64,000 bases of DNA from Cenarchaeum sp. (GTDB lineage: Archaea; Thermoproteota; Nitrososphaeria; Nitrososphaerales; Nitrosopumilaceae). Below are positions 5,464 through 55,704 of this stretch, in pieces (position 1 is the first letter of the stretch; every line of letters starts with the position of its first letter). The notes under the pieces were generated by a model. It did no database searches, was not told the origin of the DNA, and was given only the letters and a program-made list of their open reading frames with translations. The stretch lies in the NCBI GenBank assembly GCA_965242695.1, contig CBDESU010000001.1, positions 608,001 to 672,000 of the forward strand, in the 5' to 3' direction. Position numbers and translations under genes: made by a program.

Positions 5464-5798
5464 CGGCGAGGCCGGACATGGACGGCTATTAAAACCACTC
5501 CTCGCGAATTTCAGTTCTGTCGAGGCACGCTCGCCGCCGGAAGGGGAGGGGGAGGAGGGCGGATGGGAAGGAGCGAACGGCGGCAGGAGCCGCAGGGCGC
5601 TCGTCGGGCCTGCCAAGCCTCGGCACGGGCGCCCCGTCTCCTGCCCAAAGCAGGCGGCGGCCGGGCTGCGCAGGGCTCCATGCGGCCCGGTTCGCAGTGC
5701 GCCGAACCACTCGTGTCATGTGCCGTGTTGTGCGCCCGGCGGATGCCGTGCCGCCGTTCGCACCGCGGCACGGGGGGCGCCTTCCGGCGGCGCGGGCC

Positions 5799-18479: not shown

Positions 18480-18795
18480 GCCTGCGCCGCGCCCACGGGC
18501 CGTATTTACGTTCGGCTGAGGGGCGGGGCGGGGGGGGGGGGGGGGCGGGGCGGGGCGGCGGGATCGGACTCGCCGCGCGGCGGGCGGGCCGAGCCGGCCG
18601 CCGTGCGCGGATGCCGCGCCGCGCATCGGGGGCACGAGCACGCCTGCCCTGTCGCTGCACCTTGCCGCGCCCATAGGTTGTTGTGGTGCGGGAAAGGGCA
18701 GGTAAGGCACGATGTAGGAGTGGAAGATAAGTGTGGCCGCCCGGCGCGGGCGGCCTATCTTGATGGCTTTAATAGCCCCCCTCACGCCTTCTGCC

Positions 18796-19935: not shown

Positions 19936-20018
19936 CCGGCTCAGACTTGCGGCGTTCAAAGGGCGTTAAGGGCGTAGGGAGTCGTTGGTTGTGACCGCGT
20001 GGCGGAATGCATGCCCGC

Positions 20019-23000: not shown

Positions 23001-24878
23001 CACCACGACGGGGATCACTATGTAGCCGTACTTCGTGCTCTTGTCCCTCGAGGAGCGCATCACCCTGCCGACCGCCTGGATGATCTCAACGGGCGAGCTT
23101 CTGTTGCCCATGAAGATGACGGCGTCCAGCGTCGGCACGTCTATGCCCTCCGTGAGGCACCGCGCGTTCGTCAGTATGCGGCATTCCGTCGCATCCTTGT
23201 CGCTCTCTTCCAGCCAGACCAGGCGGTTGCGCCTCTCTAGGGCGTTGTGGCGGCCGTCCGTGTGCCACACGGGGAACTTGGAGTCGGCGCCATCGCCTCC
23301 AGCCGCAGATGCGACGCGGGGAAAGCCCTCGTTGAAGTCCACCGACTCCCTTATGCTGTTGCAGAACACGATGGCCCTCTGCAGCGGTATGCTTCGCGGC
23401 CTTGGGCTGGCCGCACCGTCGCCGCCGATGACGATGCCGTCCATTTCGGGGTCGCGCAGCGCGCGCCAGCAGCCGATCATCTTGGCTATTTTTTCTATGT
23501 TGAGCTTGGACGACGGATCCGCTACGTTTGTAAGCGCGACTGCCGCCTCGTCCTCCGTGACGGTCAGTACGACGACGCGGTAGTCCGACAGGAGGCCGTT
23601 TGCGATTGCGGCCGAGAAGCTGAGGCGGTACAGCTCCCTTCCGTACCACTCCTCCCTGTCCATGGAGTATGCCACAAAATCCTTTCCGTACTGCTCGCCC
23701 GCGGCCTTCATCGCCTTTTTGGTCCTGGGCGAGTACACCCTTGGCGTGGCCGTCGTGTACAGGCGTCTCTTTGCCCTGATGAACTTGTCGTCGTGGACGG
23801 CGACAAACGGTGACGTGGCGCCCTTCAGCTGCCCCTGCTTCTTTTTCCCCTCCGTGCCCCTGTGCGTGGCTAGCGGCGCATCTGTTCCCACGCCCACGGT
23901 CCGGTGTGCCTCGTCGCATATGACCAGGTCGAATGCCTCGCCCCAGATCTTCTGGGCCGCCGACACCTCTGCGAGCGACTGGTACGTGGAGAATACGACA
24001 GTGAGCTTTTTCCTCTGCCGGGACTTTAGCTGGCTGGCAATGCGGGTCTTGTCCGTTGTTACGGGTATCTCAAGCTCTGCCAGCGACGCATCCTCGTCGT
24101 TCTGGCCAGTGCGCGTGTCAGAGCAGACGCCGATGTACCTGTGCGGCATGCGCCGCTGTTCTGCCCACTCCCTCATGGTCTGCTGCAGCAGGCTGATCGA
24201 GGGGACGAGGTACAATACCGCCCCCCCCCCCGAGAGCAAATCCTCTGATATGAGGAGTGTGGCAAAGGTCTTGCCCGTGCCGCATGCCATTATGAGCTTC
24301 CCTCGCTTCACGCCGTTGTCCCTGAAGGCGGTCACGACTGCCTTGCGCGCATCCTTCTGGTGAACGGCCGGGGAGTGCTGCTTGGCCGGGCGTATCGGCT
24401 TGGCCAGGTCCGACAGCGCATCCCAGTCGACGTTGCTGTCGTCAAGCTTCTTGTAGTCGATCAACTGGCAGTCGTGCTTGTTGATCTCCGTCTCTTGGTT
24501 CTTGGTGAGACGCTTTCCGGTGTACACGAGTATGGCCTGGCCGTAGGGGGAGTCTTTTCTCGAGGTTGCGACCAAAAACTTGGCGAGGCCTGCCCACGCA
24601 AGCGGCTTGTCCTTGCTGTAGAACTTGCACTGGATTGCGGTGAACGTCCCGTCCTGCTCCCGTGCGACCAGATCGATTCCATAGTCCTGCCCGTCCCGCT
24701 TGGGGTTCCCCTCGTCGTTCCATAGCCAGACGCCCGTGAACCGCTGGCCGCCGTACACGGGATCGTGCATAAAGTACCTCTTCATAACGCGCTCAAAGAG
24801 CTGCCCCTTGCGCGATTTGTCGATGCCGGTCTTTAGGCGGGCGATCGCGTCCGCGAACGCAAACCTGGCTCCTGTCAT
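20019..24878 (-). CDS. Type ISP restriction-modification enzyme (Mrr-like nuclease, SF2 helicase, N6-adenine MTase, TRD)
   Basis: GIDLVA..AIQCKFY; MACGTGKT; DEAH; TATPR; QAVGRVMR; DPFVGTGTF; GNPPW; YRPF in the TRD. LlaGI/LlaBIII architecture, 1619 aa. Confidence 0.92.
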   Translation of the reverse strand: MTGARFAFADAIARLKTGIDKSRKGQLFERVMKRYFMHDPVYGGQRFTGVWLWNDEGNPKRDGQDYGIDLVAREQDGTFTAIQCKFYSKDKPLAWAGLAKFLVATSRKDSPYGQAILVYTGKRLTKNQETEINKHDCQLIDYKKLDDSNVDWDALSDLAKPIRPAKQHSPAVHQKDARKAVVTAFRDNGVKRGKLIMACGTGKTFATLLISEDLLSGGGAVLYLVPSISLLQQTMREWAEQRRMPHRYIGVCSDTRTGQNDEDASLAELEIPVTTDKTRIASQLKSRQRKKLTVVFSTYQSLAEVSAAQKIWGEAFDLVICDEAHRTVGVGTDAPLATHRGTEGKKKQGQLKGATSPFVAVHDDKFIRAKRRLYTTATPRVYSPRTKKAMKAAGEQYGKDFVAYSMDREEWYGRELYRLSFSAAIANGLLSDYRVVVLTVTEDEAAVALTNVADPSSKLNIEKIAKMIGCWRALRDPEMDGIVIGGDGAASPRPRSIPLQRAIVFCNSIRESVDFNEGFPRVASAAGGDGADSKFPVWHTDGRHNALERRNRLVWLEESDKDATECRILTNARCLTEGIDVPTLDAVIFMGNRSSPVEIIQAVGRVMRSSRDKSTKYGYIVIPVVVKKSASIQMTLEGNEEYGQVWNVVRALRSHDDRIDQYLVSGKMPNLVWRMPLGTIQSQPRGPSAPILSDSTYEDGMDVEDLLRLIRTRLADKVGDTRYLESWAVDVAKIVERITLRMRKLIKTTPDVRRSFGSFHEGLRKIINDYITEDEAISMLSQHMVMGRVFDTLFQSATFTKSNPISNTMNGMIDSLKKHGLESELADLEDFYKEVEYKVREISGHSAKQQVIYELYDKFFAHAFKRTATRLGIVYTPVEIVDFVLRSAEEALYRNFSRHLSGKNVHIIDPFVGTGTFVTRLLSDDLRLVQKRDLAHKFENEIHASEIVLLAYYVAAANCEMTFMERSGGSYAPFRGLLLTDTFHEKRMDAQWDDGLFTSTQAAIERLRKTPITVVMGNPPWSMGAKLYEGESRPEYPEIDAKVRETYMARTQGRGAKNYFRDSYVRALRWASSEVGADGVIAFVTNAGFLRRDTASGIRACLTEEFSEIWLVDLRGEKGIPGDGRNIFEYPGKSTGGTTLSSVVAILVKNSEKSGCTIRYFALPESAYSGPEKRRHLNDLVSIAKIDEWKELTLDGFNDWLDHRNVDFYKYPPLGTPSAKSGKWRNAIFKHYARGVGTSRDPWAYNTSKTEVAKNMKKCIDYCNAQDPNKPKIDQKRGKWTKELKDRLKRKKPRFNRSNVRIAMYRPFFEQYLYYDDVYINTPGIVPPAFPDDDSKNIVICVPYKFRGEFSAIVTDITPDLELVHHSQCFPLYIYNNSEKINNITNETRGAFQDHYKGSGKSITIRQIFYYIYAMFHHPGYKKKYANNLTREFPRIPFAPDFHTFAKIGSELVELHINYKDAGRYPLESKTTVNEFKKISFRKKKGLGHGGRIMDIDDKSAIMVDNKTLLVENIPSIEYKVNGRTPLEWIINRYTVKKDKNSEIVNDPCTGTDIKDKIRMAVHIGVETDKLIARLPDEFEPPERWSPPMGPLFQHGPDIRTEDDSTDGDSEDDEGDNVG

Positions 24879-25424: not shown

Positions 25425-26993
25425 ATGGGCGGCGCGAATGCGGACATCGCCGATGCGCTTGCCGGGGCGATATCCAGCGATGTCGTGCGCGGCGACGACG
25501 ATGCCGCCATGTTCTACGCGGCCGATGCGGGCCCCTTCGAGGCGCGCCCGGCGGCAGCGGCCGTCCCCCGCGGAGAGGACGAGGCGGCCGCCGTAGTCCG
25601 CATTGCCGCGGAATGCGGCGTGCCCGTGACGGCGCGCGGTGGCGGGACGGGGCTGGCCGGCGGCGCCGTCGGCGGCGGCGTTGTGCTGGACATGCGGATG
25701 CTCGACGGCGTCGAGATCGACGCAGGCGGCGGCGATTCGATCTCCGTCACTGCCGGCGCCGGCGCCCCAAAGGGGGCGATCGACGAGGTTCTCGCCGCCC
25801 GCGGCGCGTTCCTGGGCCCGAACCCGTCGGTGGGTCCCTACTGCACGGCAGGCGGGATGGTGGCGACAAACGCCGCCGGCAGCCGCTCCCTAAAGTACGG
25901 ATCCGTAATCGACAACCTGCTCGGCGTCAGAATCATCGACGGGCTCGGCCGGACGGCCGACCTGCCGGCCGATGCCGACCTGTCGGGCCGCATCGCGGCG
26001 GCGGCCCGGGGATGCGAGGGCGATCCGGCCGCCGGCTTTCCGGCCGTCGAAAAGAACTCGTGCGGGTACCGCATCGACGCGGTCGGCTCGGCCGCCGATG
26101 CGCACAGGGCGATTGCCGGCTCGGAGGGGACGCTCGGCATCGTCGTGTCGGCCCGCCTGCGCGCATTCGAGCTGCCCGAGTCGAGGCGGCTCTACGTCGT
26201 CGCATGCGGGTCGCATGCCGATGCGGCGGCCGACTGCATTGCGCTGCGCGGCGCGGCCCCGTCTGCGCTAGAGTACGTGGACGGGCGGACGCTGTCGCGG
26301 ATGGGAGGGGGCGCCGGCGGCATGGCCGGCATGCCGGACGGAACAAAGTGCGCCCTGCTCGCCGAGTTTGATGCCCCCGCCAGGGGCGGAGCGAACGCCC
26401 CGCCCGAGGCGTCCCGCATGGGGTCGCTGCGCGGGACCGTAGCCGACTCGACGGAGTCCGAAGCGGACATGCGCAGGTGGTGGCGCCTGCGCGACACGGC
26501 CCTGTCGGCCACGCTGCGCGGCGGGGGCGGGAGGTCGGGGCCGCCGCCGGCGTACGTCGTCGAGGATGCCGCGGTCCCGCCGGGCAGGGTCGGCGACCTT
26601 TTGGCGCTGATAGCCGCCCTCGAGGAGAGGTTCGGGCTGGATGCGACCGTGTACGGTCACATCGGCAGCGGCAACCTGCACGTGCGGCTCTCGGGCGGGG
26701 ACGGGGACGACTTTGGCGGCGTGGGGGACCGGTGGCCCGAGGGCCGCCCGCGCATGCGGCGCATCGCCGAGTGGTACCTCGGCAGGGTCGTCGCGATGGG
26801 AGGGACGATCACGGGCGAGCACGGCGACGGCCTTGCGCGGACGTGGCTCGTCGCCATGCAGTACGGTACGCCTGTACTCCGGCGCTTTGCGGCCCTAAAG
26901 GCCCTGCTCGACCCGCGCGGGATACTAAACCCGGGCAAGGTCGTGCCGGGTGCGGCCGCGCGGCTCGGGCCGGGGCGCGCCGGGCCTTCCTAG
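25425..26993 (+). CDS. FAD-binding oxidoreductase (GlcD/D-lactate dehydrogenase family)
   Basis: ARGGGTGLAGGA, GSEGTLGIV, GHIGSGNLH, GEHGDG, DPRGILNPGK. Confidence 0.9.
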   Translation: MGGANADIADALAGAISSDVVRGDDDAAMFYAADAGPFEARPAAAAVPRGEDEAAAVVRIAAECGVPVTARGGGTGLAGGAVGGGVVLDMRMLDGVEIDAGGGDSISVTAGAGAPKGAIDEVLAARGAFLGPNPSVGPYCTAGGMVATNAAGSRSLKYGSVIDNLLGVRIIDGLGRTADLPADADLSGRIAAAARGCEGDPAAGFPAVEKNSCGYRIDAVGSAADAHRAIAGSEGTLGIVVSARLRAFELPESRRLYVVACGSHADAAADCIALRGAAPSALEYVDGRTLSRMGGGAGGMAGMPDGTKCALLAEFDAPARGGANAPPEASRMGSLRGTVADSTESEADMRRWWRLRDTALSATLRGGGGRSGPPPAYVVEDAAVPPGRVGDLLALIAALEERFGLDATVYGHIGSGNLHVRLSGGDGDDFGGVGDRWPEGRPRMRRIAEWYLGRVVAMGGTITGEHGDGLARTWLVAMQYGTPVLRRFAALKALLDPRGILNPGKVVPGAAARLGPGRAGPS

Positions 26994-27241: not shown

Positions 27242-27402
27242 GCGGGGGCGCCGATGCAGCGCTATTTACGCCTTTGGCGGTAGCGGCGGGCCGCCGCCCT
27301 GTGCCGGCGCCGGCATGGTTCGATTGGGCGTGCCTGCCTCCCTGCCTGCCTTGCACATGGCCGCACCGGCAGGTTTAAGCGGGGGCCGTCGGGCGCCGTG
27401 GC

Positions 27403-27903
27403 GTGGCAGTGCGGCGCGTGCACTTTGACACGTGGGCGTTCATGGAGGTGCTCCTCGGGGGCAAGTATGCGGACATCTTGGATGATATCATGCGGCGGAG
27501 CGGCCCTGGCTCTTACTCTCTGGTCGCATCCCAGGCGGCGCCGGGCGAGGCCGATGCCGTCATACTGCGGCGCGGGAAGGGTGCCGCCCGGATGCTGCTC
27601 TCGCTTCTCGCGCTGCTCTTCGACCATCGGATCGATCCGAGCAGGTGCATGCCGCCCCTTGATGCCGCCGTACTGGCAATCGTCAACGAACTGATGGATG
27701 TAGTTCCGGCATTGGACATGACCGACAGGATCATACTTGCCCACGCCTTGGCCGACCCCGATTCGGTATTTCTTATAACGGGCGATCGCGCACTGCTTGA
27801 AAACGAGGCGATTAAACACTACGAGGGGAGGCTGCGAGCCCAAGGGCGCCGCAACGCAAAGCTAGAGATTGTCAAGCCGACCGAAACATACCACGTCTCT
27901 TGA
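27403..27903 (+). CDS. PIN-domain (VapC-like) nuclease, copy 1
   Basis: 166 aa; acidic tetrad FDT..GE..DMTDRIILAHA..ITGD; gtttaag TATA. Confidence 0.85.
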   Translation: MAVRRVHFDTWAFMEVLLGGKYADILDDIMRRSGPGSYSLVASQAAPGEADAVILRRGKGAARMLLSLLALLFDHRIDPSRCMPPLDAAVLAIVNELMDVVPALDMTDRIILAHALADPDSVFLITGDRALLENEAIKHYEGRLRAQGRRNAKLEIVKPTETYHVS

Positions 27904-27962
27904 TCTCGTCGAACGCATCGTCGACGACCTCGGGGTCACGCCGCGTCAGTTCTAGCGTCCTA

Positions 27963-29589
27963 TACATAATCCACGAGGGGTTGTGGAAAAAAGCTGACCT
28001 CGTGTGAAAGATTGTTGACAACGTGGGTCAACACCCCCGTCGGCGCATGCGGGTCATGCCAAGGAAAGCAGAGGCACCAAAGGGCGGGGCGTTCCTTCCG
28101 GAGACAAGCGCCGAGGAGCTGCTCACCATGTCAAAGAGTGCCACAAACGGGATCGATGCGATAAGGTACATGGCCATGCACATGAGGAAGATCGGCTGGG
28201 AGATCGACCAGATTGCCGAGGGCTTGGGGCGCAGCCCCGAGACGATCAGGAGATGGCTCACGCGGGCGCACAGGGAGGGCATCGGCGGTGTGCCCCACGT
28301 CAAGAAGGGGACGCTCTGCCGGCTGTCCGTCGAGGAGCGCGGCGAGCTGGCCTGCGACATCGCGACAACGCGCCCGATCGACCACGGCCTTGTGGGCACC
28401 GCATGGGACTACAAGACCGTCCAGATCCACATCAAGAACAAGTTCAAGAGGGAGTACACGTACAACGGCACGCACCGGCTTCTCCAGAGGATGGGCATCC
28501 GCCCGATGGCGCCCCGCCCCGTCCATCCCGACGGCCTCGGCGAGGAGGAGCAGTACGAGTACAAGCGCGCAATGCGGGCCCGCGCCCAGTCGCTCCACAG
28601 GCAGGGCTTCAAGGCGCAGGGCGGCGCCGACGAGGTGCACATCGCCGTCGACGAGCGGCCCACCAAGGGGCTCGGGATGAAGGGAGGCCGTCCCGTGTCC
28701 GTGCCGTCGTCGGTGGCAATGGGCCGCCTTACGTGCTTTGTGGCCCTCTTTGACGGCGCCCTGTACATAATGCGGGCCAAAAAGAACGCCAACACCGACG
28801 AGTTCATAAGGTTCTGCAACATGCTGTTGGAGATCGAGGGCATGGTGCTGCTCTGGGTCGACAACGTAAGGTACCACAAGTCAAAGCGCTTTGAAAAGTA
28901 CCTCGAGGACAACCGCGACCGCCTGCGCGTGTTCTACCTGCCCGAGTACACGTCGCCCCTGGCCGTCGCCGAGACCGAGATGGGCCCCATCAAAAAGGCC
29001 GCCGCCAAGAGGTCGCCAAAGGACAGGGAAGATGTGTGGAAGGCCCTGTGCGAGGCGGCCGCTGCGGATGACCTGCCCGTCAAGCAGCTGTACGGATGGA
29101 TGCGCATCTACGACCCCGATCCCGGTCCGACGGCGATGGCCCCCAAGTACGAGTACGACGGCGACCTGCTCATCGTCAGGTCGGACGCGCCGCCCGAACC
29201 GGCGCCCAAGCGGGGCAGGATCAAGTCGGCGTCTGGCGACGACGGCATCCTGACGTTCGAAGAGTTCAAAAAGATCCCGAAAAGCGTGTTTGACTCCGAC
29301 GGCAACATGCTCAAGCCCTTCCTGATGCTTCCAACAGGAGCGCTGCGCAACATGGCGCCTGGCCTCTACACCCCGTAACGCGCGACGGCCAATCAAGAAT
29401 GCGCGCTGCCGGATGCCTGCCGCCGGCAGCGTTCCCTGTTCCGCAATTGAGCCGTCCGTATGTGCACAACAAAGGTGCGGCAGGACATATCGCTTCCAAC
29501 ATGAGTCGCATTTCTGGACTTGATATTTTTACCCCCTTTCCCATTTTCCACCAATAAAGAAATACCCACATTGGCTCATGGATTACGTA
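27963..29589 (+). mobile_element. IS630-family insertion sequence (1627 bp)
   Basis: TA duplication (27961-27962 / 29590-29591); imperfect terminal IRs TACATAATCCACGAG / TACGTAATCCATGAG extending to about 24 bp; empty site visible in paralogous units. Confidence 0.93.
28056..29378 (+). CDS. IS630-family transposase with C-terminal extension
   Basis: HTH (IAEGLGRSPETIRRWL), AWDY, ADE, WVDNVRYHKS and YLPEYTSPLAVAE DDE motifs. Confidence 0.9.
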   Translation: MPRKAEAPKGGAFLPETSAEELLTMSKSATNGIDAIRYMAMHMRKIGWEIDQIAEGLGRSPETIRRWLTRAHREGIGGVPHVKKGTLCRLSVEERGELACDIATTRPIDHGLVGTAWDYKTVQIHIKNKFKREYTYNGTHRLLQRMGIRPMAPRPVHPDGLGEEEQYEYKRAMRARAQSLHRQGFKAQGGADEVHIAVDERPTKGLGMKGGRPVSVPSSVAMGRLTCFVALFDGALYIMRAKKNANTDEFIRFCNMLLEIEGMVLLWVDNVRYHKSKRFEKYLEDNRDRLRVFYLPEYTSPLAVAETEMGPIKKAAAKRSPKDREDVWKALCEAAAADDLPVKQLYGWMRIYDPDPGPTAMAPKYEYDGDLLIVRSDAPPEPAPKRGRIKSASGDDGILTFEEFKKIPKSVFDSDGNMLKPFLMLPTGALRNMAPGLYTP

Positions 29590-30523
29590 TAGCTTTCAAT
29601 CCTTCCATACTCCAACCGCCGGTCACCCTCAGTGCAAGCATCGTGTTTGCAGCGTCCAGCCACGCCTTGCTCCTGCCCTCGACCATGCCCAGGAACTCGC
29701 CCTCCCTGAACGATCCGGGCAGGACGGGCTCGGCCGCGGCGTACACGGCGCTGTCCTCGTCGGACAGACGGTAGATGGCGTCGGCCATCTCGTACGCCGC
29801 CGGCCCGCCGTTTATGTAAATGTCAAAGTCGAACCCCATGTCCAGCCCAAAGTACAGGGCCATGTAGGCGTACTGCTGCACCCTGTCGACGACGGCCAGC
29901 CCCTCCCTGCCGGGCGCGAGCGGGGGGCCAAACTCCATCAGGCCCCTCGACGCCAGGTACTTTATGAACCGGGCAAGCGGCGGCAGCATCTCGTCGCGTG
30001 CGCTCCTGCCGATCATGTCGAGGCGCTCCTCGCGCGACTTTTGGGGCGGATTCATGAGGCGCTCGGGCAGCGCAACCGCAAGGGCCATGCCGGCGCCCGA
30101 CGCGCAGGGCCCAATAAGCCTTTGCGTGCGGGCCGCGCGGGATCCTGCGCCCGAAAGGGCGGGCGGCGCGCCATTTCACCGTCTCCGCGATCCTGCGCGG
30201 GCGGTCGCGCCGCCCCCGACCGGGACACTAGACATAGCAAGCGAGCCGTCCAGTGCGGGGTGGCGCAGGCTGCGCTCAGGCCGCCGCCGTTCATGCGGCC
30301 CCATCTGGTTGGGCTGCCCGCCGCCGCCCTCTGTTCTGCGGCGGCGGCAGCGCCCGCGGCCCCGCCGTCGATCGACGACATGGCCATGGAGCTTGTGTGA
30401 GAGGAGGGTCGGAACCGCCGCGCTGCGCGCCGTGAAAGGCGCCGTGTGGGCGAATGGACCCGTGGGATGCCGCCGCGCGCGGGGCACCGGCAGGTTTAAG
30501 CGAGGGCCGCCGGGCGCCGGTAC

Positions 30524-31024
30524 ATGGCAGTGCGGCGCGTGCACCTCGACACATGGGCGTTCATGGTGGTCCTCCTCGGGGGCAAGTATGCAAACGTCCT
30601 GATTGATATCATGCGGCAGAGCGGCCCGGGCTTGTACTCACTCGTCGCGTCACAGGCCGCGCTGGGCGAGGCCGACGCCGTAATACTGCGGCGCGGGAAG
30701 GATGCCGCCCAGATGTTCCTCTCACTTCTCGCGCTGCTCTTCGACCACCGGATCGATCCGGGCAGGTGCATGCCGCCCCTTGACGCCGCCGTGCTGGCGA
30801 TCGTCAACGAATTGATGGCCGTGGCCCCCGAGCTGGACATGACCGACAGGATCATACTTGCCCACGCCCTGGCCGATCCGGACTCTGCCTTTTTCATAAC
30901 GGGCGACTACAGGATGCTTAAAAACAACGCTGTCAAGCGATACGAAGAGCGGCTGCAGGCCCAGGGGCGCCGTCGTGAAAAGCTTGTGATTATACGCCCC
31001 ACCGCAGCATCCCACGTCTCTTGA
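30524..31024 (+). CDS. PIN-domain nuclease, copy 2
   Basis: 166 aa, acidic tetrad intact. Confidence 0.85.
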   Translation: MAVRRVHLDTWAFMVVLLGGKYANVLIDIMRQSGPGLYSLVASQAALGEADAVILRRGKDAAQMFLSLLALLFDHRIDPGRCMPPLDAAVLAIVNELMAVAPELDMTDRIILAHALADPDSAFFITGDYRMLKNNAVKRYEERLQAQGRRREKLVIIRPTAASHVS

Positions 31025-31580
31025 TCTCGCCTAGCGCATCGTCGACGACCTCGGGGTCGCGCCGCGTCAGCTCCAGCGCCCTGTCCCTCAACCCTGCCAG
31101 ATCCCACCCGCTGTCCATGTTTAAGTCCAGCATCGTGGTCGCCGCGTCCAGCCAGGCCTTGCTCCTGCCCTCGACCATGCCCAGGAACTCGCCCTCCCGA
31201 AACGACCCGGGCAGGACGGGCTCGGCCGCGGCGTACACGGCGCTGTCCCTGTCTGCAAGCCGGTCGATGGCGTCTGCCATCTCGTACGCCGCCGGCCCGC
31301 CGCCCATGTAAATGTCAAAGTCAAACCCCATGTCCAGCCCAAAGTACAGGGCCGTGTAGGCGTACTGCTGCACCCTGTCGATCACGTCCACGCCCTCCAT
31401 GCCGTCCGCGAGCGGGGGCCCAAACTCTATCAGTCCCTTTGATGCCAGGTACTTTATGAACCGGGCAAGCGGCGGCAGCAGCTCGGCACGGGCGCTCCTG
31501 CCGAGCATGTCGAGGCGCTCCTCGCGCGACTTTCGGGGCGGGTTTACAAGGCGCTCGGGCAGCGCAACCGCAAGGGCCAT
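30990..31580 (-). CDS. SocA/Panacea-like partner, copy 2
   Basis: DRVQQYAY..YFGLDMGFDFDIY..GP resembles the LQKxxY..F..y.yGP signature; WLDAATTM helix. Confidence 0.75.
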   Translation of the reverse strand: MALAVALPERLVNPPRKSREERLDMLGRSARAELLPPLARFIKYLASKGLIEFGPPLADGMEGVDVIDRVQQYAYTALYFGLDMGFDFDIYMGGGPAAYEMADAIDRLADRDSAVYAAAEPVLPGSFREGEFLGMVEGRSKAWLDAATTMLDLNMDSGWDLAGLRDRALELTRRDPEVVDDALGEIKRRGMLRWGV

Positions 31581-32037
31581 GCCGGCGCCCGACGCGCAGG
31601 GCCCAATAAGCCTTTGCGTGCGGGCCGCGCGGGATCACGCACGGAAGGGAGGAACAGCGCCCCCTTCGCCGCTGTGATTCCACTCGGTCGCGGTCGCCGC
31701 CGCCCCGAACCATGGTGTGACTGCGGCGTGGTAAGCGAACCGTGCCGGTGCGGGATGGAAGATGTCGTGCACAGGCCGCCGCACAGAGGCCGTCGTTCGT
31801 GTGGCCCATGCCGGTTGGTCCGTGCGCTGACGCCCTCCGCTCTGCGGGGGCGGCGGCGCCCGCGGCCCCGCCACAGATCGACGCTAGGGATGCGGGCTCT
31901 TGGATGCGGGAAGTAAGGCCGGACCGCCGCCTGCGCACCATGAAAAGGCGCCGCTGCGGGCGGATGGACCCGTGCGATGCCGCCGCCCCGCGGTGTGCCG
32001 CCGGCAGGTTTAAGCGCGGGCCGTCGGGCGCAGGGCC

Positions 32038-32538
32038 ATGGCGTTGCGGCGCGTGCACTTTGACACGTGGGCGTTCATGGAGGTGCTCCTCGGGGGCAAA
32101 TACGCGGATATTCTGGAGGATATCATGCGGCGGAGCGGCCCCGGCTCGTACTCGCTGGTCGCGTGCCAGGCCGCGCTGGGCGAGGCCGACGCCGTCATAC
32201 TGCGGCGCGGGAAGGATGCCGCCCGGATGCTGCTCTCGCTTCTCGCGCTGCTCTTCGACCACCGGATCGATCCCGGCAGGTGCATGCCACCGCTTAATGC
32301 CGCCGTGTTGGCCATAGTCAACGAACTGATGGCTGCGGTTCCCGAGCTTGACATGACCGACAGGATCATACTTGCCCACGCCCTGGCCGATCCAGACTCT
32401 GTCTTTTTCATAACGGGCGACACCAAGATGATCGGCAACGATGCGATCGCACGATACGAAGAACGGCTGCGGAATCAGGGGCGCCGTAGCGCAAAGCTTG
32501 TGGTTGTCGATCCTAGCGAAGCATCCCGCGTCCTTTGA
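32038..32538 (+). CDS. PIN-domain nuclease, copy 3
   Basis: 166 aa, acidic tetrad intact. Confidence 0.85.
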   Translation: MALRRVHFDTWAFMEVLLGGKYADILEDIMRRSGPGSYSLVACQAALGEADAVILRRGKDAARMLLSLLALLFDHRIDPGRCMPPLNAAVLAIVNELMAAVPELDMTDRIILAHALADPDSVFFITGDTKMIGNDAIARYEERLRNQGRRSAKLVVVDPSEASRVL

Positions 32539-33094
32539 TCTCACCGAGCGCATCGTCGACGACCTCGGGGCTGCACGGGATCAATTCGAGCGCCCGGTTT
32601 CTAAGCCTGCGCAGATCCCATCTTCCGTTCATGTTCAGGCAGAGCATCGTGGTAGCTGCACTAACCCACGCCTTGCTCCTGCCCTCGACCATGCCCAGGA
32701 ATTCGCCCTCCCGGAACGACCCGGGCAGGACAGGCTCGGCTTCCTCGTACACGGCGCTGTCCTCGGCAGACAGCCGGTAGATGGCGTCTGCCATCTCGTA
32801 CGCCGCCGGCCCGCCGTTGATGTAAATGTCAAAATCGAACCCCATGTCCAGCCCAAAGTACAGGGCCGTGTAGGCGTACTGCTGCACCCTGTCGACGACG
32901 GCCAGCCCCTCCCTGCCGGGCGCGAGCGGGGGCCCAAACTCCATCAGGCCCCTCGACGCCAGGTACTTTATGAACCGGGCAAGCGGCGGCAGCATCTCGG
33001 CGCGGGCGCTCCTGCCGATCATGTCGAGGCGCTCCTCGCGCGACTTTCGGGGCGGGTTTACGAGGCGCTCGGGCAGCGCAACCGCAAGGGCCAT
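32513..33094 (-). CDS. SocA/Panacea-like partner, copy 3
   Basis: 193 aa paralog. Confidence 0.75.
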   Translation of the reverse strand: MALAVALPERLVNPPRKSREERLDMIGRSARAEMLPPLARFIKYLASRGLMEFGPPLAPGREGLAVVDRVQQYAYTALYFGLDMGFDFDIYINGGPAAYEMADAIYRLSAEDSAVYEEAEPVLPGSFREGEFLGMVEGRSKAWVSAATTMLCLNMNGRWDLRRLRNRALELIPCSPEVVDDALGEIKGRGMLR

Positions 33095-33552
33095 GCCGGC
33101 GCCCGACACGCAGGCCCAATAAGGCTTTGCATGCGGGCCGCGCGGGATCTTGCACTGGAATAAGCCGTGCGCACCATTTCACCGCCGCCGCGATCCTGCG
33201 CGGGCGGTCGCGTCGCGACGAATCGGGACATGGCTGGGCGTGGCAAGCGAGCCGTGCCGGTGCGGGGTGGCGCAGGCCGCGCGCAGGCTGCCGCGCGTAG
33301 GCCGCAGTTACTCGCGTGGCCTGTCGGTCGGACCGCACGCCGCCGCCCTTTTCGATCTGCGGGGGCGGCAGCGCCCGCGTCCCCGCCATCGATCTGCGCC
33401 AGGGCCGCGGGCGCTGGCATGGGAGGAGGTAGGGCCGGAACCGCCTCGCTGCGCGCCGTGAAAGGCGCCGTTGCGGGCGAGTGGTGTCGCGGGATGCCGC
33501 TGCGCGCGGGCGGCGCCGGCAGGCTTGAGCGCGGGCCGCCGGGCGCCGTGGC

Positions 33553-34053
33553 ATGGCGGTGAGGCGCGTGCACCTCGACACGTGGGCGTTCATGGTGGTG
33601 CTCCTCGGCGGCAAGCTTGCGAACGTCCTAGGGGAGATCATGCGGCGGAGCGGCCCGGGCTCGCACTCACTCGTCGCGTCACAGGCCGCGCTGGGCGAGG
33701 CCGACGCCGTCATACTGCGGCGCGGGAGCGATGCAGCCCGGATGCTGCTCGCGCCGCTCGCACTGCTCGCCGACCACCGGATCGATCCGGGTCGGTGCAT
33801 GCCGCCGCTTGACGCCGCCGTGCTTGCAATCGTCAACGATCTGATGGCCATCGCCCCCGAGCTAGACATGACAGACAGAATAATACTTGCCCACGCCTTG
33901 GCTGATCCAGACTCTGTCTTTTTCATAACGGGCGACCGTGCCATGCTTAGGAACGACGACATACCACTATACGAGGAGCGGCTTCGGGCCCAGGGGCGTC
34001 GCAACGCAAAGCTTGTGATTATCAAGCCGTCCGAAACATACCACGTCTCTTGA
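33553..34053 (+). CDS. PIN-domain nuclease, copy 4
   Basis: 166 aa, tetrad intact; TATA altered to gcttgag. Confidence 0.85.
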   Translation: MAVRRVHLDTWAFMVVLLGGKLANVLGEIMRRSGPGSHSLVASQAALGEADAVILRRGSDAARMLLAPLALLADHRIDPGRCMPPLDAAVLAIVNDLMAIAPELDMTDRIILAHALADPDSVFFITGDRAMLRNDDIPLYEERLRAQGRRNAKLVIIKPSETYHVS

Positions 34054-34609
34054 TCTCGCTGAACGCATCGTCGACTACCTCGGGGTCGCGCCGCGTCAGT
34101 TCCAATGTCCTGCTTTTCAACCTGTCCAGATCCCGCCAGCTGCCTATGTTCAGGTCCAGCATCGTGGTCGCCGCGTCCAGCCACGCCTTGCTCCTGCCCT
34201 CGACCATGCCCAGGAACTCGCCCTCCCTGAACGACCCGGGCAGGATGGGCTCGGCCGCGGCATATACGGCGCTGTCCTTGTCGGCGAGCCGGTCGATTGC
34301 GTCGGCCATCTCGTACGCCGCCGGCCCGCCGCCCATGTAAATGTCAAAGTCAAACCCCATGTCCAGCCCAAAGTACAGGGCCGTGTAGGCGTACTGCTGC
34401 ACCCTGTCGATCACGTCCACGCCCTCCATGCCGTCCGCGAGCGGGGGCCCAAACTCCATCAGTCCCTTTGATGCCAGGTACTTTATGAACCGGGCAAGCG
34501 GCGGCAGCATCTCGTCGCGCGCGCTCCTGCCGATCATGTCGAGGCGCTCCTCGCGCGACTTTCGTGGCGGGTTTACGAGGCGCTCGGGAAGCGCGACCGC
34601 AAGGGCCAT
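34022..34609 (-). CDS. SocA/Panacea-like partner, copy 4
   Basis: 195 aa paralog. Confidence 0.75.
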   Translation of the reverse strand: MALAVALPERLVNPPRKSREERLDMIGRSARDEMLPPLARFIKYLASKGLMEFGPPLADGMEGVDVIDRVQQYAYTALYFGLDMGFDFDIYMGGGPAAYEMADAIDRLADKDSAVYAAAEPILPGSFREGEFLGMVEGRSKAWLDAATTMLDLNIGSWRDLDRLKSRTLELTRRDPEVVDDAFSEIKRRGMFRTA

Positions 34610-34745
34610 GCCGGCGCCCGACGCGCAGGGCCCAATAAGCATTTGCATGCGGGCCGCGCGGGATGTCGCACTAGAAGGATCGCGCGTCACTTCACCGCCG
34701 CCGCGATCCAGTATGGGCTGCCGCGCCGCGCCGAACAGGGACATG

Positions 34746-34920
34746 GCTAGGCGCAGCTAGGCGCAGCTAGGCGCAGCTAGGCGCAGCAAGCGGGCCCTGC
34801 CGGTGCGGGATGGGGCAAGCCGTGAGCAGCCCGCCGCCACTGTCCGCGCGGTCCCAACCCGTTAGACTACCGCCGCCGTCCGCGCGGTCCCAACCCGTTA
34901 GACTACCGCCGCCGTCCGCG
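34746..34920. repeat. 10-bp x4 (gctaggcgca) and 36-bp x2 tandem repeats in the intergenic spacer
   Basis: Directly visible. Confidence 0.8.
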
Positions 34921-35116
34921 ATCCGCGGGATCAGCAGCGCCTGCAGCCCCGCAATCGACCGATGCCCGGGCCGCGGGCGCCGGAATGTGGGAAGTGGGAC
35001 AGGAGCTGCCACGCTGCGCGCCGTGGAAGGCGCATTGCGGGCAAACAGACTCGCGGGATGCCGCCGCGCGCGGGAGGCGCCGGCAGGTTTAAGCGCGGGC
35101 CGCCGGGCGCAGGGGC

Positions 35117-35617
35117 ATGGTACGGCGGCGCGTGCACTTTGACACATGGGCGTTCATGGAAGTGATCCTCGGAGGCAAGCATGCGAACGTCCTGAGGGAG
35201 ATCATGCGGCGGAGCGGCCCAGATTCGTACTCGCTGGTCGCGTCCCGGGCCGCTCCGGGTGAGGCCGACGCCGTCATACTGCGACGCGGGAAGGATGCCG
35301 CCAGGATGCTCCTCTCACTCCTTGCACTGCTCGCCGACTATAGGGTGGATCCGGGCAGGTGCATGCCGCCCCTTGACGCCGCCGTGCTGGCGATCGTCAA
35401 CGAGTTGATGGATGCGGTTCCCGAACTGGACATGACCGACAGGATCATACTCGCGCACGCCCTGGCCGACCCAGACTCGACCTTCCTCATAACGGGCGAC
35501 TATGCGATGCTTGAAAACAAGGCCATCGTACAATACGAGGAATGGCTGCGGTCTCAGGGGCGCCGCAACGAAAAGCTTGTGATTATCAAGCCGTCCGAAA
35601 CATACCGCGTCTCTTGA
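35117..35617 (+). CDS. PIN-domain nuclease, copy 5
   Basis: 166 aa, tetrad intact. Confidence 0.85.
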   Translation: MVRRRVHFDTWAFMEVILGGKHANVLREIMRRSGPDSYSLVASRAAPGEADAVILRRGKDAARMLLSLLALLADYRVDPGRCMPPLDAAVLAIVNELMDAVPELDMTDRIILAHALADPDSTFLITGDYAMLENKAIVQYEEWLRSQGRRNEKLVIIKPSETYRVS

Positions 35618-36173
35618 TCACGTCGAACGCATCGTCGACGACCTCGGGGTCGCGCCGCGTCAGTTCCAGCGTCCTGGCTTTCAATCCCTCCAGATCCCAG
35701 CCGCCGCGCAGCCTCAGTGCGATCATCGTGTTTGCCGCATCCAGCCACGCCTTGCTCCTGCCCTCGACCATGCCCAGGAACTCGCCCTCCCGAAACGACC
35801 CGGGCAGGACGGGCTCGGCCGCGGCGTACACGGCGCTGTCCTTGCCGGCGAGCCGGTCGATGGCGTCGGCCATCTCGTACGCCGCCGGACCGCCGTTGAT
35901 GTGAATGTCAAAGTCGAACCCCATGTCCAGCCCAAAGTACAGGGCCGTGTAGGCGTACTGCTGCACCCTGTCGATCACGTCCACGCCCTCCATGCCGTCC
36001 GCGAGCGGGGGCCCAAACTCCATCAGTCCCTTTGATGCCAGGTACTTTATGAACCGGGCAAGCGGCGGCAGCATCTCGTCGCGGGCGCTCCTGCCGATCA
36101 TGTCTAGGCGCTCCTCGCGCGACTTTCGGGGCGGGTTTACGAGGCGCTCGGGCAGCGCGACCGCAAGGGCCAT
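35586..36173 (-). CDS. SocA/Panacea-like partner, copy 5
   Basis: 195 aa paralog. Confidence 0.75.
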   Translation of the reverse strand: MALAVALPERLVNPPRKSREERLDMIGRSARDEMLPPLARFIKYLASKGLMEFGPPLADGMEGVDVIDRVQQYAYTALYFGLDMGFDFDIHINGGPAAYEMADAIDRLAGKDSAVYAAAEPVLPGSFREGEFLGMVEGRSKAWLDAANTMIALRLRGGWDLEGLKARTLELTRRDPEVVDDAFDVIKRRGMFRTA

Positions 36174-36373
36174 GCCGGCGCCCGACGCGCCCGCCCAATA
36201 GGGCTTTGCATGCGTGCCGCGAGGATCCCGTGCCGGAATGGGAGGGCGTCTCTTTGCCGCCCGCGCGATCCCGCGCGGGCGCGGCCGGCGCCTCGCCGAG
36301 CCTGGGCCATGCGCAGCGGCGGCCGCGGCCGCCGCGCGCCGGCAAAAATAGGGAAAAAGGCAGCAGCGAAGCG

Positions 36374-37930
36374 CTACTGGAACGGGTCGATGAACGGGCA
36401 GTTCACGATGTGGTCAGAGTCCATGGGCCTTGCGATCGAGACGGTTACGAGGCCGTCGGCGACCATCGCGTCGATGTCGGCCTTTGTCTCGAGCAAGGAC
36501 GCCTCGGACGGGTCGCCCCACGTGACTAGGTATATCCTCCACATGGGCGAGTACGTCTCGTCGCCTAGCGCCGCTGTCGCGATGCCGGGCTGGAACCCGA
36601 GGGGCCCAGTCCCGGCGATGCCGTTGGTGAACTGGTACAGGTCGACGGCCGCCGGGCTGGCGATCATCGATGCGCTCGTCGGCGCGCTCACGACCCCCAT
36701 CATGTCGGCGGGCCCCGCGGGCGTCGCATCCGTTACGATATAGTACGACGTGCGGCCGTCGGGCCCCCAGCCCCTGTGGGCCACGAACGTGACGGTCATC
36801 GCGTCGGTGTCGATGTCGATCACCTGTCCTCCCCCGTACGGGGTGTCGTCTGCCAGCGCCGCGTCCTCCTTTACGGCCATCTGGCCGCCGGGCCACACTA
36901 TATGCGGCATGTTGAGGACTACGGGGAGCTCGGTGAGGACGACGTCGCCGTCGGCCTCTGCCTCCAGCACGTCTGCCTCGGACGTGAGCATGCGCGGCTC
37001 GGCCCCCTCGTTCCACGTGACGTGCACGTGGCCCGTCAGGGCGCTGTACTCGCCGGCCTGCTCGGGCGTGGACGTAAAGACCTCGCCTTGGTGGCCGTGC
37101 ACTCCGGGTCCCTCTATGCCGTTGGTGAACATGTACGTCGTCGACAGGGCCTCGTCCGGCGCGTCGGCCAGGACGGGCGCAAGCTCTACGTTCCAACCCT
37201 TTGCCTCGCTGATGATCTGCGCATGCGTCGGGTCGCTCGAGTCGGTCGTAATGTAGTAGACCGGCTCTCCCTCGTAGTATCCCATGCTCATGGGAATGAC
37301 GGCAGGCACGTTGGCCCTTGACAGGCGCAGCGTCGGCGTCCATTCTCCGTCCTTGTCCTTCATCTTGTCCTTGTCCTTCATCTTGTCCTTCATCCTCTCC
37401 TCGTCCTTGTACTTTTCCTTCTTGTCCTTCATCTTGTCCTTCATCCTCTCCTCGTCCTTGTACTTTTCCTTCTTGTCCTTCATCTTGTCCTTGTCCTTCA
37501 TCCTCTCCTCGTCCTTGTACTTTTCCTTCTTGTCCTTCATCTTGTCCTTGTCCTTCATCCTCTCCTCGTCCTTGTACTTTTCCTTCTTGTCCGCCATAGC
37601 GTCGTCGGACTGCTCGGCGCCGGGCGCCGTGGCCGCCTCGTTGGCCGCCCTGGCCGCCGCGATGCGATCGTCCGCGCTAGGCTCGGCGTCCCCGCCGCCC
37701 ACGGAGGATGCGCGCTCGGCGGCCGCCTCCCTCATGGACGCCTCGAACGCCTTGCGCCCGCCGGGGTACTCGGAGCACAGCCGGTCGCCGCACACCTGGT
37801 CCCGCGTGATGCCGTACGCCCCGGCCGCATGCGCGCTCTCCGGCGCGCCGCCTGCCAGCCCGTACGCAAGCCCCACGGATAGGAGGGGCAGCACTGCAAG
37901 TGCCAATAGACTCTTTCTCGTTGAATTCAT
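36374..37930 (-). CDS. Exported thaumarchaeal-type protein with K/D/E/M-rich repeat linker and duplicated C-terminal domain
   Basis: Signal peptide MNSTRKSLLALAVLPLL; VCGDRLCSE motif; two related YYI(T/V)TD..YxFTNGIxGxG..GxQ halves. Confidence 0.85.
   Translation of the reverse strand: MNSTRKSLLALAVLPLLSVGLAYGLAGGAPESAHAAGAYGITRDQVCGDRLCSEYPGGRKAFEASMREAAAERASSVGGGDAEPSADDRIAAARAANEAATAPGAEQSDDAMADKKEKYKDEERMKDKDKMKDKKEKYKDEERMKDKDKMKDKKEKYKDEERMKDKMKDKKEKYKDEERMKDKMKDKDKMKDKDGEWTPTLRLSRANVPAVIPMSMGYYEGEPVYYITTDSSDPTHAQIISEAKGWNVELAPVLADAPDEALSTTYMFTNGIEGPGVHGHQGEVFTSTPEQAGEYSALTGHVHVTWNEGAEPRMLTSEADVLEAEADGDVVLTELPVVLNMPHIVWPGGQMAVKEDAALADDTPYGGGQVIDIDTDAMTVTFVAHRGWGPDGRTSYYIVTDATPAGPADMMGVVSAPTSASMIASPAAVDLYQFTNGIAGTGPLGFQPGIATAALGDETYSPMWRIYLVTWGDPSEASLLETKADIDAMVADGLVTVSIARPMDSDHIVNCPFIDPFQ
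37345..37592. repeat. Charged tandem repeats (MKDKDKMKDKKEKYKDEER)
   Basis: Directly visible, about 4 units of variable length. Confidence 0.85.
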
Positions 37931-38140
37931 TGCGGCACGGCGCGCCGGGTCGCTAAAAAGAGTTGCCCCAGGTGCGGCCGGCGCCCGCCGCAGGGCGCCA
38001 CGCGCAGGCGCGCGGCCCGGCCATGCGCCGCCGCCGCAGGCGGCCCGTGCGCCGCCGCGCGGCCCGGCCGGCCAGGGCGCGGCGGCAGCGGCGATCGCCG
38101 GCAGGGCGGGTTTATAACGGGCCGCTCTTCCGCACCGGCC

Positions 38141-38518
38141 ATGTCGGATGAACGCAGCTATGCGACCATGATCTGCTGCATGGACGGAAGGATCCACGGC
38201 CCGCTCGTCGAGTGGACCCGGAAGAAGGCCAACGTCAACTACGTCGATGCGGTCACCGAGCCGGGCGCGGACAAGATGCTCTCGCACTCGCCAGAGGTGG
38301 CCGATCAGCTACGGAGGAAGGCAAAGGGCTCGATAAGGGCGCGCGGCTCCAAGCTCCTCGTGGTGGCCGGCCACGCGGGGTGCGCGGGCAACCCCGTCAG
38401 CGAAGAGCAGCACCGCAAGGACGTTGCGGACAGCGTAAAGGTCGTGCAGGGATGGGACACCGGCGTCGACGTGGTCGGCGTCTGGGTCGGCGACGACCGT
38501 ACGGTCTTTCCCGTATAG
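38141..38518 (+). CDS. Beta-class carbonic anhydrase-like protein
   Basis: CMDGR and HxxC zinc ligands, TEPG; tttataa TATA at 38111. Confidence 0.8.
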   Translation: MSDERSYATMICCMDGRIHGPLVEWTRKKANVNYVDAVTEPGADKMLSHSPEVADQLRRKAKGSIRARGSKLLVVAGHAGCAGNPVSEEQHRKDVADSVKVVQGWDTGVDVVGVWVGDDRTVFPV

Positions 38519-43428: not shown

Positions 43429-43685
43429 GCCCGGCGCCCCGCCGCGCTCCTTATACACCTTGCGGCTCTTGATCCTACCTCCTCCCACAGCGAATCTCCT
43501 GCGGCCGAGGCGCCGGGGCTCCCAGACTCCAGCCCTGTCCGGCGGGGCGGGGCGGGGCGGGGCGGGAAGGAGCGGCTAGCCTGCCGGCCCCCCGCCCTGG
43601 CGCCTCTGCCCCCCCCCCGCCTGCGCCCCTCCCCCCCATCCTCCGCGCCGCCAGACGTATAGCCCCGCCCAGGCGCGCCGCCGCG

Positions 43686-55605: not shown

Positions 55606-55704
55606 CGGTAGGCGCGGCGGCCGCGCCGCTGACATGCGCGCGGCGGCGGTCACGATGGGCTTAATATGGCGCGCTGGCGGCGCTGGTTTGAGGGGCAGCA
55701 AGCG

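Follow-up and report, generated by a model that had tools for sequence, protein, structure and literature searches.

A candidate toxin-antitoxin array of convergent PIN-domain and Panacea-like genes in a Cenarchaeum genome

VapBC modules often occur in many paralogous copies per genome, DarTG is encoded as an operon, and type I loci such as txpA/RatA of Bacillus subtilis are convergent, with a 3'-overlapping antisense RNA. For the antitoxin domain Panacea (DUF4065), pairing with dozens of toxins has been reported (Kurata et al. 2022, PMC8832971), and Dataset S1 of that survey holds one predicted PanA pair whose toxin has HHpred matches to PIN/VapC. The prediction of PanAT pairs demanded the same strand and a gap of <=100 nt, with rejection on “strand difference”. 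By the same account, most taxa have one DUF4065 homologue, with a maximum of 25, and thaumarchaeal DUF4065 genes were filed as “not TA-like”, a catch-all for no cluster, a gap >100 nt or a strand difference. Stand-alone Panacea can neutralise a toxin by direct contact (Ernits et al. 2023, PMC10440598), and DUF4065 proteins are described as homologous to the toxin-inhibiting C-terminal domain of DarG in PMC13621843 (2026), the source of the link between that domain and DUF4065 used here. In the present study, a window of 64,000 nucleotides from a Cenarchaeum sp. genome (G000:C1:608001-672000) was analysed, in which a tandem array at 27358..36300 is made of five units, each with a predicted PIN nuclease gene on the + strand and a convergent partner gene on the - strand. 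With moderate confidence, the array is read from its sequence as a tandemly amplified two-gene toxin-antitoxin-like (TA-like) module, in which a PIN toxin would be paired with a Panacea-like antitoxin on the opposite strand.

Comparison with the described systems places this locus close to several of them and inside none. It resembles PanAT in that a small stand-alone antitoxin-type domain adjoins a toxin domain, with profile-profile homology over the core helix and the GPxS motif. It differs in that PF13274 matches none of the array partners, that the pairs lie on opposite strands at 13 PIN loci of the host and 7 of its relatives whereas PanAT is same-strand, that the partner adds about 35 N-terminal residues and a C-terminal helical, winged-helix-like part, and that the family occurs in tandem arrays, with 38 open reading frames (ORFs) in one genome against the maximum of 25 given in the survey of Kurata et al. 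With DarTG the likeness lies in the partner, which has no other strong structural match than the C-terminal domain of DarG (7yk3, in complex with DarT) and finds its best PDB sequence match there too; this domain inhibits its toxin as a protein, as stated in PMC13621843. The array partner, unlike DarG, has no macrodomain (no Pfam match at E <= 1), and the toxin candidate is a PIN nuclease, not the DarT ADP-ribosyltransferase. VapBC shares the PIN fold and the acidic active-site residues, and VapC structures are the top fold matches; however, no vapB-like gene lies upstream of the array PINs, where the spacers are non-coding, the partner is three times the typical VapB size and has another fold, and the array genes are convergent whereas vapB and vapC are co-transcribed. 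SocAB, a type VI system whose SocA is the founding DUF4065 antitoxin, is remotely related, through the antitoxin superfamily that it shares with the partner; according to PMC8832971, SocA serves SocB as a proteolytic adaptor, whereas the array has no sign of a protease and an unrelated toxin. Type I convergent loci share convergent transcription with a 3' overlap as a possible means of control, but both strands of the array encode conserved proteins, and an antisense effect would add to neutralisation by protein.

The host genome (3.89 Mb, two contigs C1 and C2, 67-68% GC) carries a full-length archaeal small-subunit ribosomal RNA (1450 bits). Five repeat units lie between 27.36 and 36.30 kb of the window, the repeat families D1-D9 being present in five copies each. 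The limits of the whole array, including its promoter-bearing repeat ends, follow from these families and from the spacer homology, which sets in roughly 45 nt upstream of PIN1 and fades out roughly 130 nt past the start of partner 5. Each unit consists of a 166-amino-acid (aa) ORF on the + strand convergent with an ORF of 193-196 aa on the - strand, counted from the conserved MALAV start; only in unit 1 is the partner interrupted. There, the intact PIN1 (27403..27903, +) overlaps the 3' remnant of partner 1 (27872..27960, -), comprising the last 29 codons and the stop (27872-27874) as recognised by tblastn and from the empty-site form described below. The remnant is followed by an insertion sequence (IS) of the IS630 family, 1629 bp long with a TA target duplication (27961..29589, +; transposase ORF 28023-29378), and by the shortened partner 1 of 170 aa (29576..30088, -), with about 166 residues of its own and a few IS-derived codons. 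In the remaining units PIN2 (30524..31024, +) faces partner 2 (196 aa; 30990..31580, -), PIN3 (32038..32538, +) faces partner 3 (193 aa from the conserved ATG; 32513..33094, -), PIN4 (33553..34053, +) faces partner 4 (195 aa from the conserved ATG; 34022..34609, -) and PIN5 (35117..35617, +) faces partner 5 (195 aa; 35586..36173, -). The 3' overlaps in units 2-5 are 35, 26, 32 and 32 bp, respectively. The partners were delimited as ORFs, as were the PINs, all five of which have a Pfam match and the acidic residues; structure models were made for both genes of unit 5. The repeat periods are 1514, 1515 and 1564 bp, and the first is 3121 bp owing to the IS.

Between the units lie spacers of 435 bp (30089..30523, with the divergent promoter boxes of partner 1 and PIN2), 457 bp (31581..32037), 458 bp (33095..33552) and 507 bp (34610..35116). 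Spacer identity is 73-82%, with 7-11 indels per spacer whose length is not a multiple of three and no common frame, and the spacers are therefore taken as non-coding; a hidden third gene such as vapB was rejected on the same grounds. The coding repeats are 84-91% identical among units. In both ORF sets the GC content by codon position is typical of the genes of a GC-rich genome (GC3 0.72-0.86 vs GC2 0.41-0.46), which supports both reading frames as genes. Within otherwise GC-rich surroundings, an AT-rich box, TTTAAG, is located 23 nt upstream of every PIN ATG, and another, CTTATT, 24 nt upstream of every partner ATG. A spacing of about 23-24 nt between box and ATG is the expected geometry for archaeal TATA boxes of leaderless mRNAs, and the conserved boxes fit putative TATA promoters of leaderless genes, one per gene. 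The initial annotation of this DNA had given five units of about 1.5 kb with partners of 193-196 aa, which describes units 2-5 correctly but overlooked the IS630 element in unit 1, where the period is lengthened and the partner cut to 170 aa. Its 3' overlaps of 26-35 bp and its separate TATA box for each gene agree with the measurements given above; its spacers, said to be far more diverged and rich in indels, do contain the frame-breaking indels, but the contrast in identity is moderate.

All spacers contain a GC-rich palindrome near the middle (30348-30385, ~31854-31900, 33370-33416 and 34936-34982), with arms of about 13 bp, GCGCCCGCGGCCC...GGGCCGCGGGCGC, flanking a centre similar to ATCGATCGA. 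By sequence it could be a candidate operator, a recombination site or a mere stable hairpin. The palindrome prompted consideration of an integron-like cassette array, which was rejected, the units being paralogous duplicates 84-91% identical, with no integrase among the Pfam-scanned neighbours. Spacer 4-5 owes its greater length to four copies of the 10-bp unit GCTAGGCGCA (34746-34785) and a 36-bp tandem duplication (34834-34905). A search of the window with Rfam at gathering thresholds returned no match, and the window contains no tRNAs.

The + strand gene is supported as a VapC-type PIN nuclease, with a predicted fold and a putative RNase activity. Each of the five copies has a weak match to PF01850 (E 5.5e-5 to 1.4e-3; curated cut-off 23.6 bits). 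Only PIN3 exceeds the cut-off, with 24.2 bits, the others reaching 19.7-22.0 bits (E 2.6e-4 to 1.4e-3); for several of the close homologues, PF01850 is assigned in precomputed annotation. The acidic active-site positions expected on strand 1, helix 3, helix 5 and the C-terminal strand of a PIN domain, D9, E49, D105, D108 and D128, are unchanged in 5/5 PINs, and the last four of these across 39 homologues at 52-90% identity, D9 being missing in truncated entries. With the AlphaFold2 (AF2) model of PIN5, which has a mean predicted local distance difference test score (pLDDT) of 76.6, the ten best Foldseek matches all belong to PIN-domain chains, and nine are VapC or FitB toxins (probability 0.82-1.00, TM 0.38-0.62 with the top at 0.5-0.6, best E 7.5e-3). 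Some gene callers place the start at Met14, giving entries of 153 aa, in which the first catalytic aspartate is lost. Here, the 166-aa form is favoured because the N-terminus is conserved and the promoter-like box lies 23 nt before Met1. The earlier assignment of all five genes as PIN nucleases of exactly 166 aa with retained acidic residues is therefore kept.

The partner has no match in Pfam (E <= 1), NCBIfam, PADLOC or a single-sequence search of the PDB. PF13274 (cut-off 25.7 bits) recognises 0/5 window partners at E <= 1 and, among 62 members of the partner family, matches two, with a best E of 0.11; one true PF13274 gene is located elsewhere in the host genome (C2:567619-567945, 65 bits). 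The family is small, with 43 proteins at >=50% identity. A library of 1.8 billion proteins yielded 71 representatives, most of 150-170 aa and matching residues 38-154, and a Pfam scan of 32 remote members found no relevant family. The protein is acidic (pI 4.7-5.2) and mostly helical. The AF2 model of partner 5 from the 62-row alignment reached a pLDDT of 91.2, and comparison with 48,161 representative chains by VIA-align gave 7yk3_D at Z 9.9 (root-mean-square deviation 3.4, 147/187 residues), the runner-up having Z 4.2. The Foldseek top entry is also 7yk3, with a probability of 0.98. The best match of the partner-family profile among PDB sequences is 7yk3_B, “DNA ADP-ribosyl glycohydrolase” (DarG), at E 0.031; it spans a QK..A...GPYS motif, and the chain is a 189-residue piece, the DarG C-terminal domain. 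Alignment of the 62-row partner profile with 22 genuine PF13274 proteins drawn from genomes of the same phylum by hhalign gave 91.3% (P 9.7e-7) over 50 columns, and 12/12 controls (an unrelated PIN profile, the reversed alignment and 10 column shuffles) remained at 0.3% or less. The nearest ESM Atlas cluster, automatically named “putative DUF4065” (score 0.90), is a lead only. Outside the matching core, the partner has about 35 N-terminal residues and a C-terminal helical part (the last ~55 residues) with weak winged-helix matches at Z 3-4.2; Pfam detects no DNA-binding domain. Together, the fold and profile matches support the partner, at the level of remote homology only, as a very distant member of the fold common to the DarG C-terminal domain and the SocA/Panacea (DUF4065) antitoxins. 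The label “SocA/Panacea-like” in the initial annotation holds in this remote sense, and not as Pfam membership. The fold search on both proteins that was proposed there returned VapC for the PIN and the DarG C-terminal domain for the partner.

The pairing of the two genes was followed by profile searches of all ORFs in the host genome and in 14 distinct partner loci fetched from relatives. The host genome contains 13 PIN-family genes and 38 partner-family ORFs; 13/13 of these PINs adjoin a partner-family ORF, always on the opposite strand, with none co-directional. In the relatives, a PIN lies next to the partner at 7/14 loci, and there too the strands are opposite in every case. Partner matches occur in 6/41 genomes searched, the host included, and in 3/4 other genomes of the same genus, and PIN/partner pairs in five genomes (G000, G001, G003, G004 and G019), with identities as low as 25-35%. 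In the close subfamily the two genes converge and overlap at their 3' ends; besides the array, its host members are three pairs standing alone (C1:482k, C1:502k and C2:1023k) and, at C1:1871k, an orphan partner. Further host arrays (C1:1013511-1017656, C1:1027861-1030079 and C1:1591960-1599833) are formed by a distant subfamily at 25-30% identity; there the two genes diverge, and a PIN is often accompanied by two or three partners. At the solitary close-family loci, the PIN has decayed in 3/4 cases and the partner is an intact ORF in 4/4: the PIN at 482k is frameshifted, that at 502k is stopped at codon 150, and a faint remnant (E 0.11) lies at the expected convergent position at 1871k. Likewise, 2/5 PINs of the sister genome G004 carry frameshifts, and the partners next to them are intact. 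The conserved opposite-strand pairing and the preferential decay of the PIN strengthen the toxin-antitoxin reading. A complex prediction for PIN5 with partner 5, with an alignment for each chain, scored 0.01 against a mark of 0.32 and is neutral on binding.

The sister genome, which is of the same genus, carries its own three-unit array (G004:C2:2538000-2556000, positions 7032-10739); array copy number in related genomes had been named earlier as a point to check. Its overlaps are 35, 26 and 35 bp and its periods about 1315 and 1214 bp; neither gene has obvious ATG starts, and the third PIN is split by a frameshift near codon 36. In the partner tree the five host-array copies form one clade (100/98) and the G004-array copies another (100/99), implying that the arrays arose independently or that each was homogenised. 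With the close-family alignment as query, no relatives of the locus were found in public genome-contig, metagenome-contig and viral-contig collections. Furthermore, a narrow literature search on convergently transcribed PIN-domain TA, or on tandem-array, gene-converting paralogous TA, found no such locus described. Some 20 other ORFs of the partner family lack a PIN next to them, for example at C1:297661, 363795, 549607, 1189816, 1299154, 1447922 and 1534254; five lie within 11 kb at C2:549552-560705, near weak PF13274 matches. These ORFs may pair with other toxin types.

Several observations weigh against reading the array as a TA module of this kind. Classical type II pairs are co-directional, and the array genes lie on opposite strands with separate promoter-like boxes, i.e. 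without a bicistronic operon, which excludes operon-type co-regulation. The PanAT pairs predicted in Kurata et al. (2022, PMC8832971) are, by the criteria given there, all co-directional. Regarding the partner, the PF13274 model does not match the window copies, and the profile-profile match is confined to 50 columns and falls to 30.6% with the close-family profile alone. The PIN model is of middling confidence, and every Foldseek E-value is >0.001. The divergent pairs of the distant subfamily argue against the importance given to the 3' overlap, which is therefore not essential to the family. No region tested outside the gene overlap has a ratio of non-synonymous to synonymous change (dN/dS) >1. 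Finally, PIN1 is intact while partner 1 has been cut short by the IS, implying cross-protection by paralogous partners, a working partner of about 166 residues or a harmless PIN1; cross-protection would weaken the notion of insulated specificities.

If the toxin-antitoxin reading is correct, the partner would bind its own PIN directly and block it, a type II mode of action known from stand-alone Panacea antitoxins and from the DarG C-terminal domain, and each gene would be read from its own leaderless TATA promoter. No consistent T-rich terminator was found in the sequence at the convergent junctions, so head-on transcription or 3' antisense pairing is possible: the polymerases or transcripts of both genes would meet, and strong antitoxin transcription would damp the toxin, and vice versa. 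Mutual antagonism has been proposed for another convergent defence gene pair, according to a preprint (10.64898/2026.10.19.760177). The array would have grown by unequal crossing-over, with its flanks homogenised by gene conversion while the junction (PIN 129-140, partner 149-185) stays distinct, and the junction may decide which partner neutralises which PIN. The biological role would be addiction or phage defence.

Selection and exchange among the units were measured by pairwise and regional Nei-Gojobori counts only. Synonymous divergence (dS) between units is 0.39-0.61 for the PIN and 0.16-0.36 for the partner, and pairwise dN/dS is 0.18-0.33 and 0.24-0.44, respectively; hence the copies are old and under purifying selection. 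The proportion of non-synonymous differences (pN) is 0.18 in PIN 15-28, 0.25 in PIN 99-103, 0.35 in PIN 129-140 and 0.27 in partner 149-170, and its ratio to the synonymous proportion (pN/pS) reaches 0.62 in PIN 129-140, 0.57 in partner 149-170 and 0.74 in partner 171-185, against 0.07-0.30 in the cores. A lone ratio above 1 (1.69, PIN 156-166) comes from the stretch where the two genes overlap in different frames, and no meaning can be attached to it. The least similar part of a unit is its middle, i.e. the PIN and partner C-termini, at 61-93% identity. The 95 informative sites of the unit alignment fall into ten mutually conflicting 2:3 splits, and in one block of the N-terminal half of the partner, units 2, 4 and 5 share 99-100% identity and units 1 and 3 share 99%. 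Conflicting splits together with near-identical blocks are the signature of gene conversion. As judged from these alignments, the units are gene-conversion mosaics with a unit-specific core at the convergent junction, which escapes homogenisation and is less constrained. The initial annotation had placed clusters of substitutions at PIN residues ~15-28 and ~99-103, after the ITGD motif and in the partner C-terminus, all of which are recovered here, and had seen the ORFs as being under selection, which proves to be purifying. Its term “diversifying” is not borne out outside the overlap, and its suggestion of cassette-like recombination within conserved flanks fits the mosaic pattern and is unproven.

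There is a small but appreciable chance of a refinement of the TA reading, close to the view taken in the initial annotation: the array would be a phage-defence (abortive infection) repertoire, in which insulated PIN/partner specificities are under diversifying selection and a Panacea-like sensor frees the PIN on infection. The variable core at the PIN and partner C-termini is in keeping with this, as pS at the junction (0.43-0.56) and pN both exceed those of the homogenised flanks, and so is the separate origin of arrays in two genomes. GmrSD-like nuclease and Type ISP restriction-modification genes are located 2.5-8.7 kb upstream, although a FAD-linked oxidase gene sits between them and the array. 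Moreover, a sensor role for Panacea was proposed in Ernits 2023 (PMC10440598), and the DNA is found in sponge-metagenome runs, a habitat called phage-rich in PMC7848895. However, dN/dS in the variable patches is 0.57-0.74 and not >1, for which relaxed constraint is an equally good explanation; PIN1 persists beside a disrupted partner 1, contrary to strict insulation, and PADLOC gave no match. A wider proposal must be regarded as unlikely: opposite-strand wiring, with head-on transcription, antisense overlap and binding combined, would be the rule of an unrecognised archaeal branch of Panacea TA, and the arrays a recombining repertoire of specificity cassettes, i.e. a diversity-generating immune locus of a symbiotic archaeon. 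Gene conversion would then shuffle the flanks, and the adjoining 3' ends (PIN 129-140, partner 149-185) would travel together as cassettes.

The copies could also be selfish addiction modules, spread by unequal crossing-over and gene conversion with no benefit to the cell and a drifting copy number, which is considered quite improbable. The mosaic of 95 informative sites in ten different 2:3 splits would be expected from such behaviour, as would the 38 partner-family ORFs and the many decayed PIN copies elsewhere in the genome. The array has, in addition, been the target of the IS, identical copies of which occur elsewhere in the genome. This element matches DDE_3 (1e-14, Pfam) and an IS630 transposase model (1.4e-36, NCBIfam) and is inserted at codon ~166 of partner 1, leaving the 170-aa ORF and the 89-nt 3' remnant. 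Two more copies, 99.9-100% identical over the aligned part, are located at C1:1340511, itself interrupted, and C2:183131. An empty site, with position 27960 joined to 29590 and TA..TA ends, is present in contigs of 3/4 public runs (X1, X4 and X6), implying that the insertion is recent and polymorphic; in this form partner 1 is an uninterrupted ORF of 195 aa that overlaps PIN1 by 32 bp. Against purely selfish spread, none of the five PINs is damaged or altered in length, and their dN/dS is about 0.2 despite dS of 0.4-0.6; the partners behave likewise, indicating that the array genes have been kept functional for long.

That the pair is no TA at all, the PIN being an RNA-processing or housekeeping nuclease co-duplicated with an unrelated helical or winged-helix regulator, is very improbable. 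Opposite strands with separate promoter-like boxes and the weak winged-helix matches of the last ~55 partner residues (Z 3-4.2) would suit this view. However, adjacency is kept at 25-35% identity over five genomes, all 13 host PINs have a partner-family neighbour, the only strong fold match of the partner is an antitoxin domain, and the asymmetric decay of PINs is typical of toxins. An assembly artefact, by which one pair was expanded or mis-joined by the assembler, is barely credible: short-read contigs do end within repeats and run X1 contains two odd joints, but the five copies are 9-16% apart in DNA, the sister genome has its own array, and the unit-specific spacers recur in public data.

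The public data are contigs of four independent runs from three studies, labelled as sponge metagenome. Every unit-specific spacer was found in contigs of 2-4 of the 4 runs, with 0-11 differences, and the five units are therefore real sequence and not the assembler's invention. The run contigs are short, so that they support the content of the array and cannot prove the order of its units. A collapse of the array on read mapping, raised earlier as a possible outcome, is not seen in its content, all four spacers being recovered. The odd joints in run X1 are 30219->35095 and 33548->30502, in each case across 37-39 intervening letters; they may be array variants with another number or order of units, or artefacts of the de Bruijn graph.

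PIN toxins and Panacea/DarG-type antitoxins were known already, and the conserved opposite-strand layout is most likely what is new here. The PIN/Panacea-like pair occurs only on opposite strands in five genomes and has been amplified into arrays twice, and large hunts for TA and defence genes usually demand a shared strand, so that opposite-strand pairs are excluded by design. If the array is a true TA, the Panacea/DarG C-terminal domain superfamily is wider than Pfam detects, a class of modules has been missed by design, and the locus offers a natural system for control of a toxin by convergent transcription and for insulation versus cross-protection of paralogous pairs. If it is not a TA of this sort, it simply adds a further example of TA paralogues expanding in the genome of a symbiont with many mobile elements.

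Regarding the surroundings, the GmrSD-like (DUF262) nuclease gene lies at 18733-19935 and is followed by a 1619-aa Type ISP restriction-modification gene at 20019-24878, which begins in a stretch of about 50% GC (20001-22000). The region 18733-24878, which ends 2.5 kb short of the array, was probably gained by horizontal transfer as a defence islet; the FAD-linked oxidase gene occupies 25425-26993. The host itself is presumably a sponge-associated member of the Nitrososphaerota. For sponge-associated Thaumarchaeota, raised GC and many transposases have been reported in the literature, and on their TA genes PMC7848895 says “enriched” in the abstract and “not significantly” in the body. Eukaryote-like repeat proteins have been reported for sponge symbionts. 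Here, giant NHL-repeat proteins of 3021 aa (5799-14864, -) and 2060 aa (55666-61848, +) flank the region, and TPR proteins are encoded at 4108-5616 and 41467-43488. Downstream of the array follow a DUF7482 protein, a putative carbonic anhydrase and a TauE exporter; the N-terminal half of the DUF7482 protein (36374-38287, -) contains a long tandem repeat rich in lysine, glutamate and aspartate, KEKYKDEERMKDKDKMKD...

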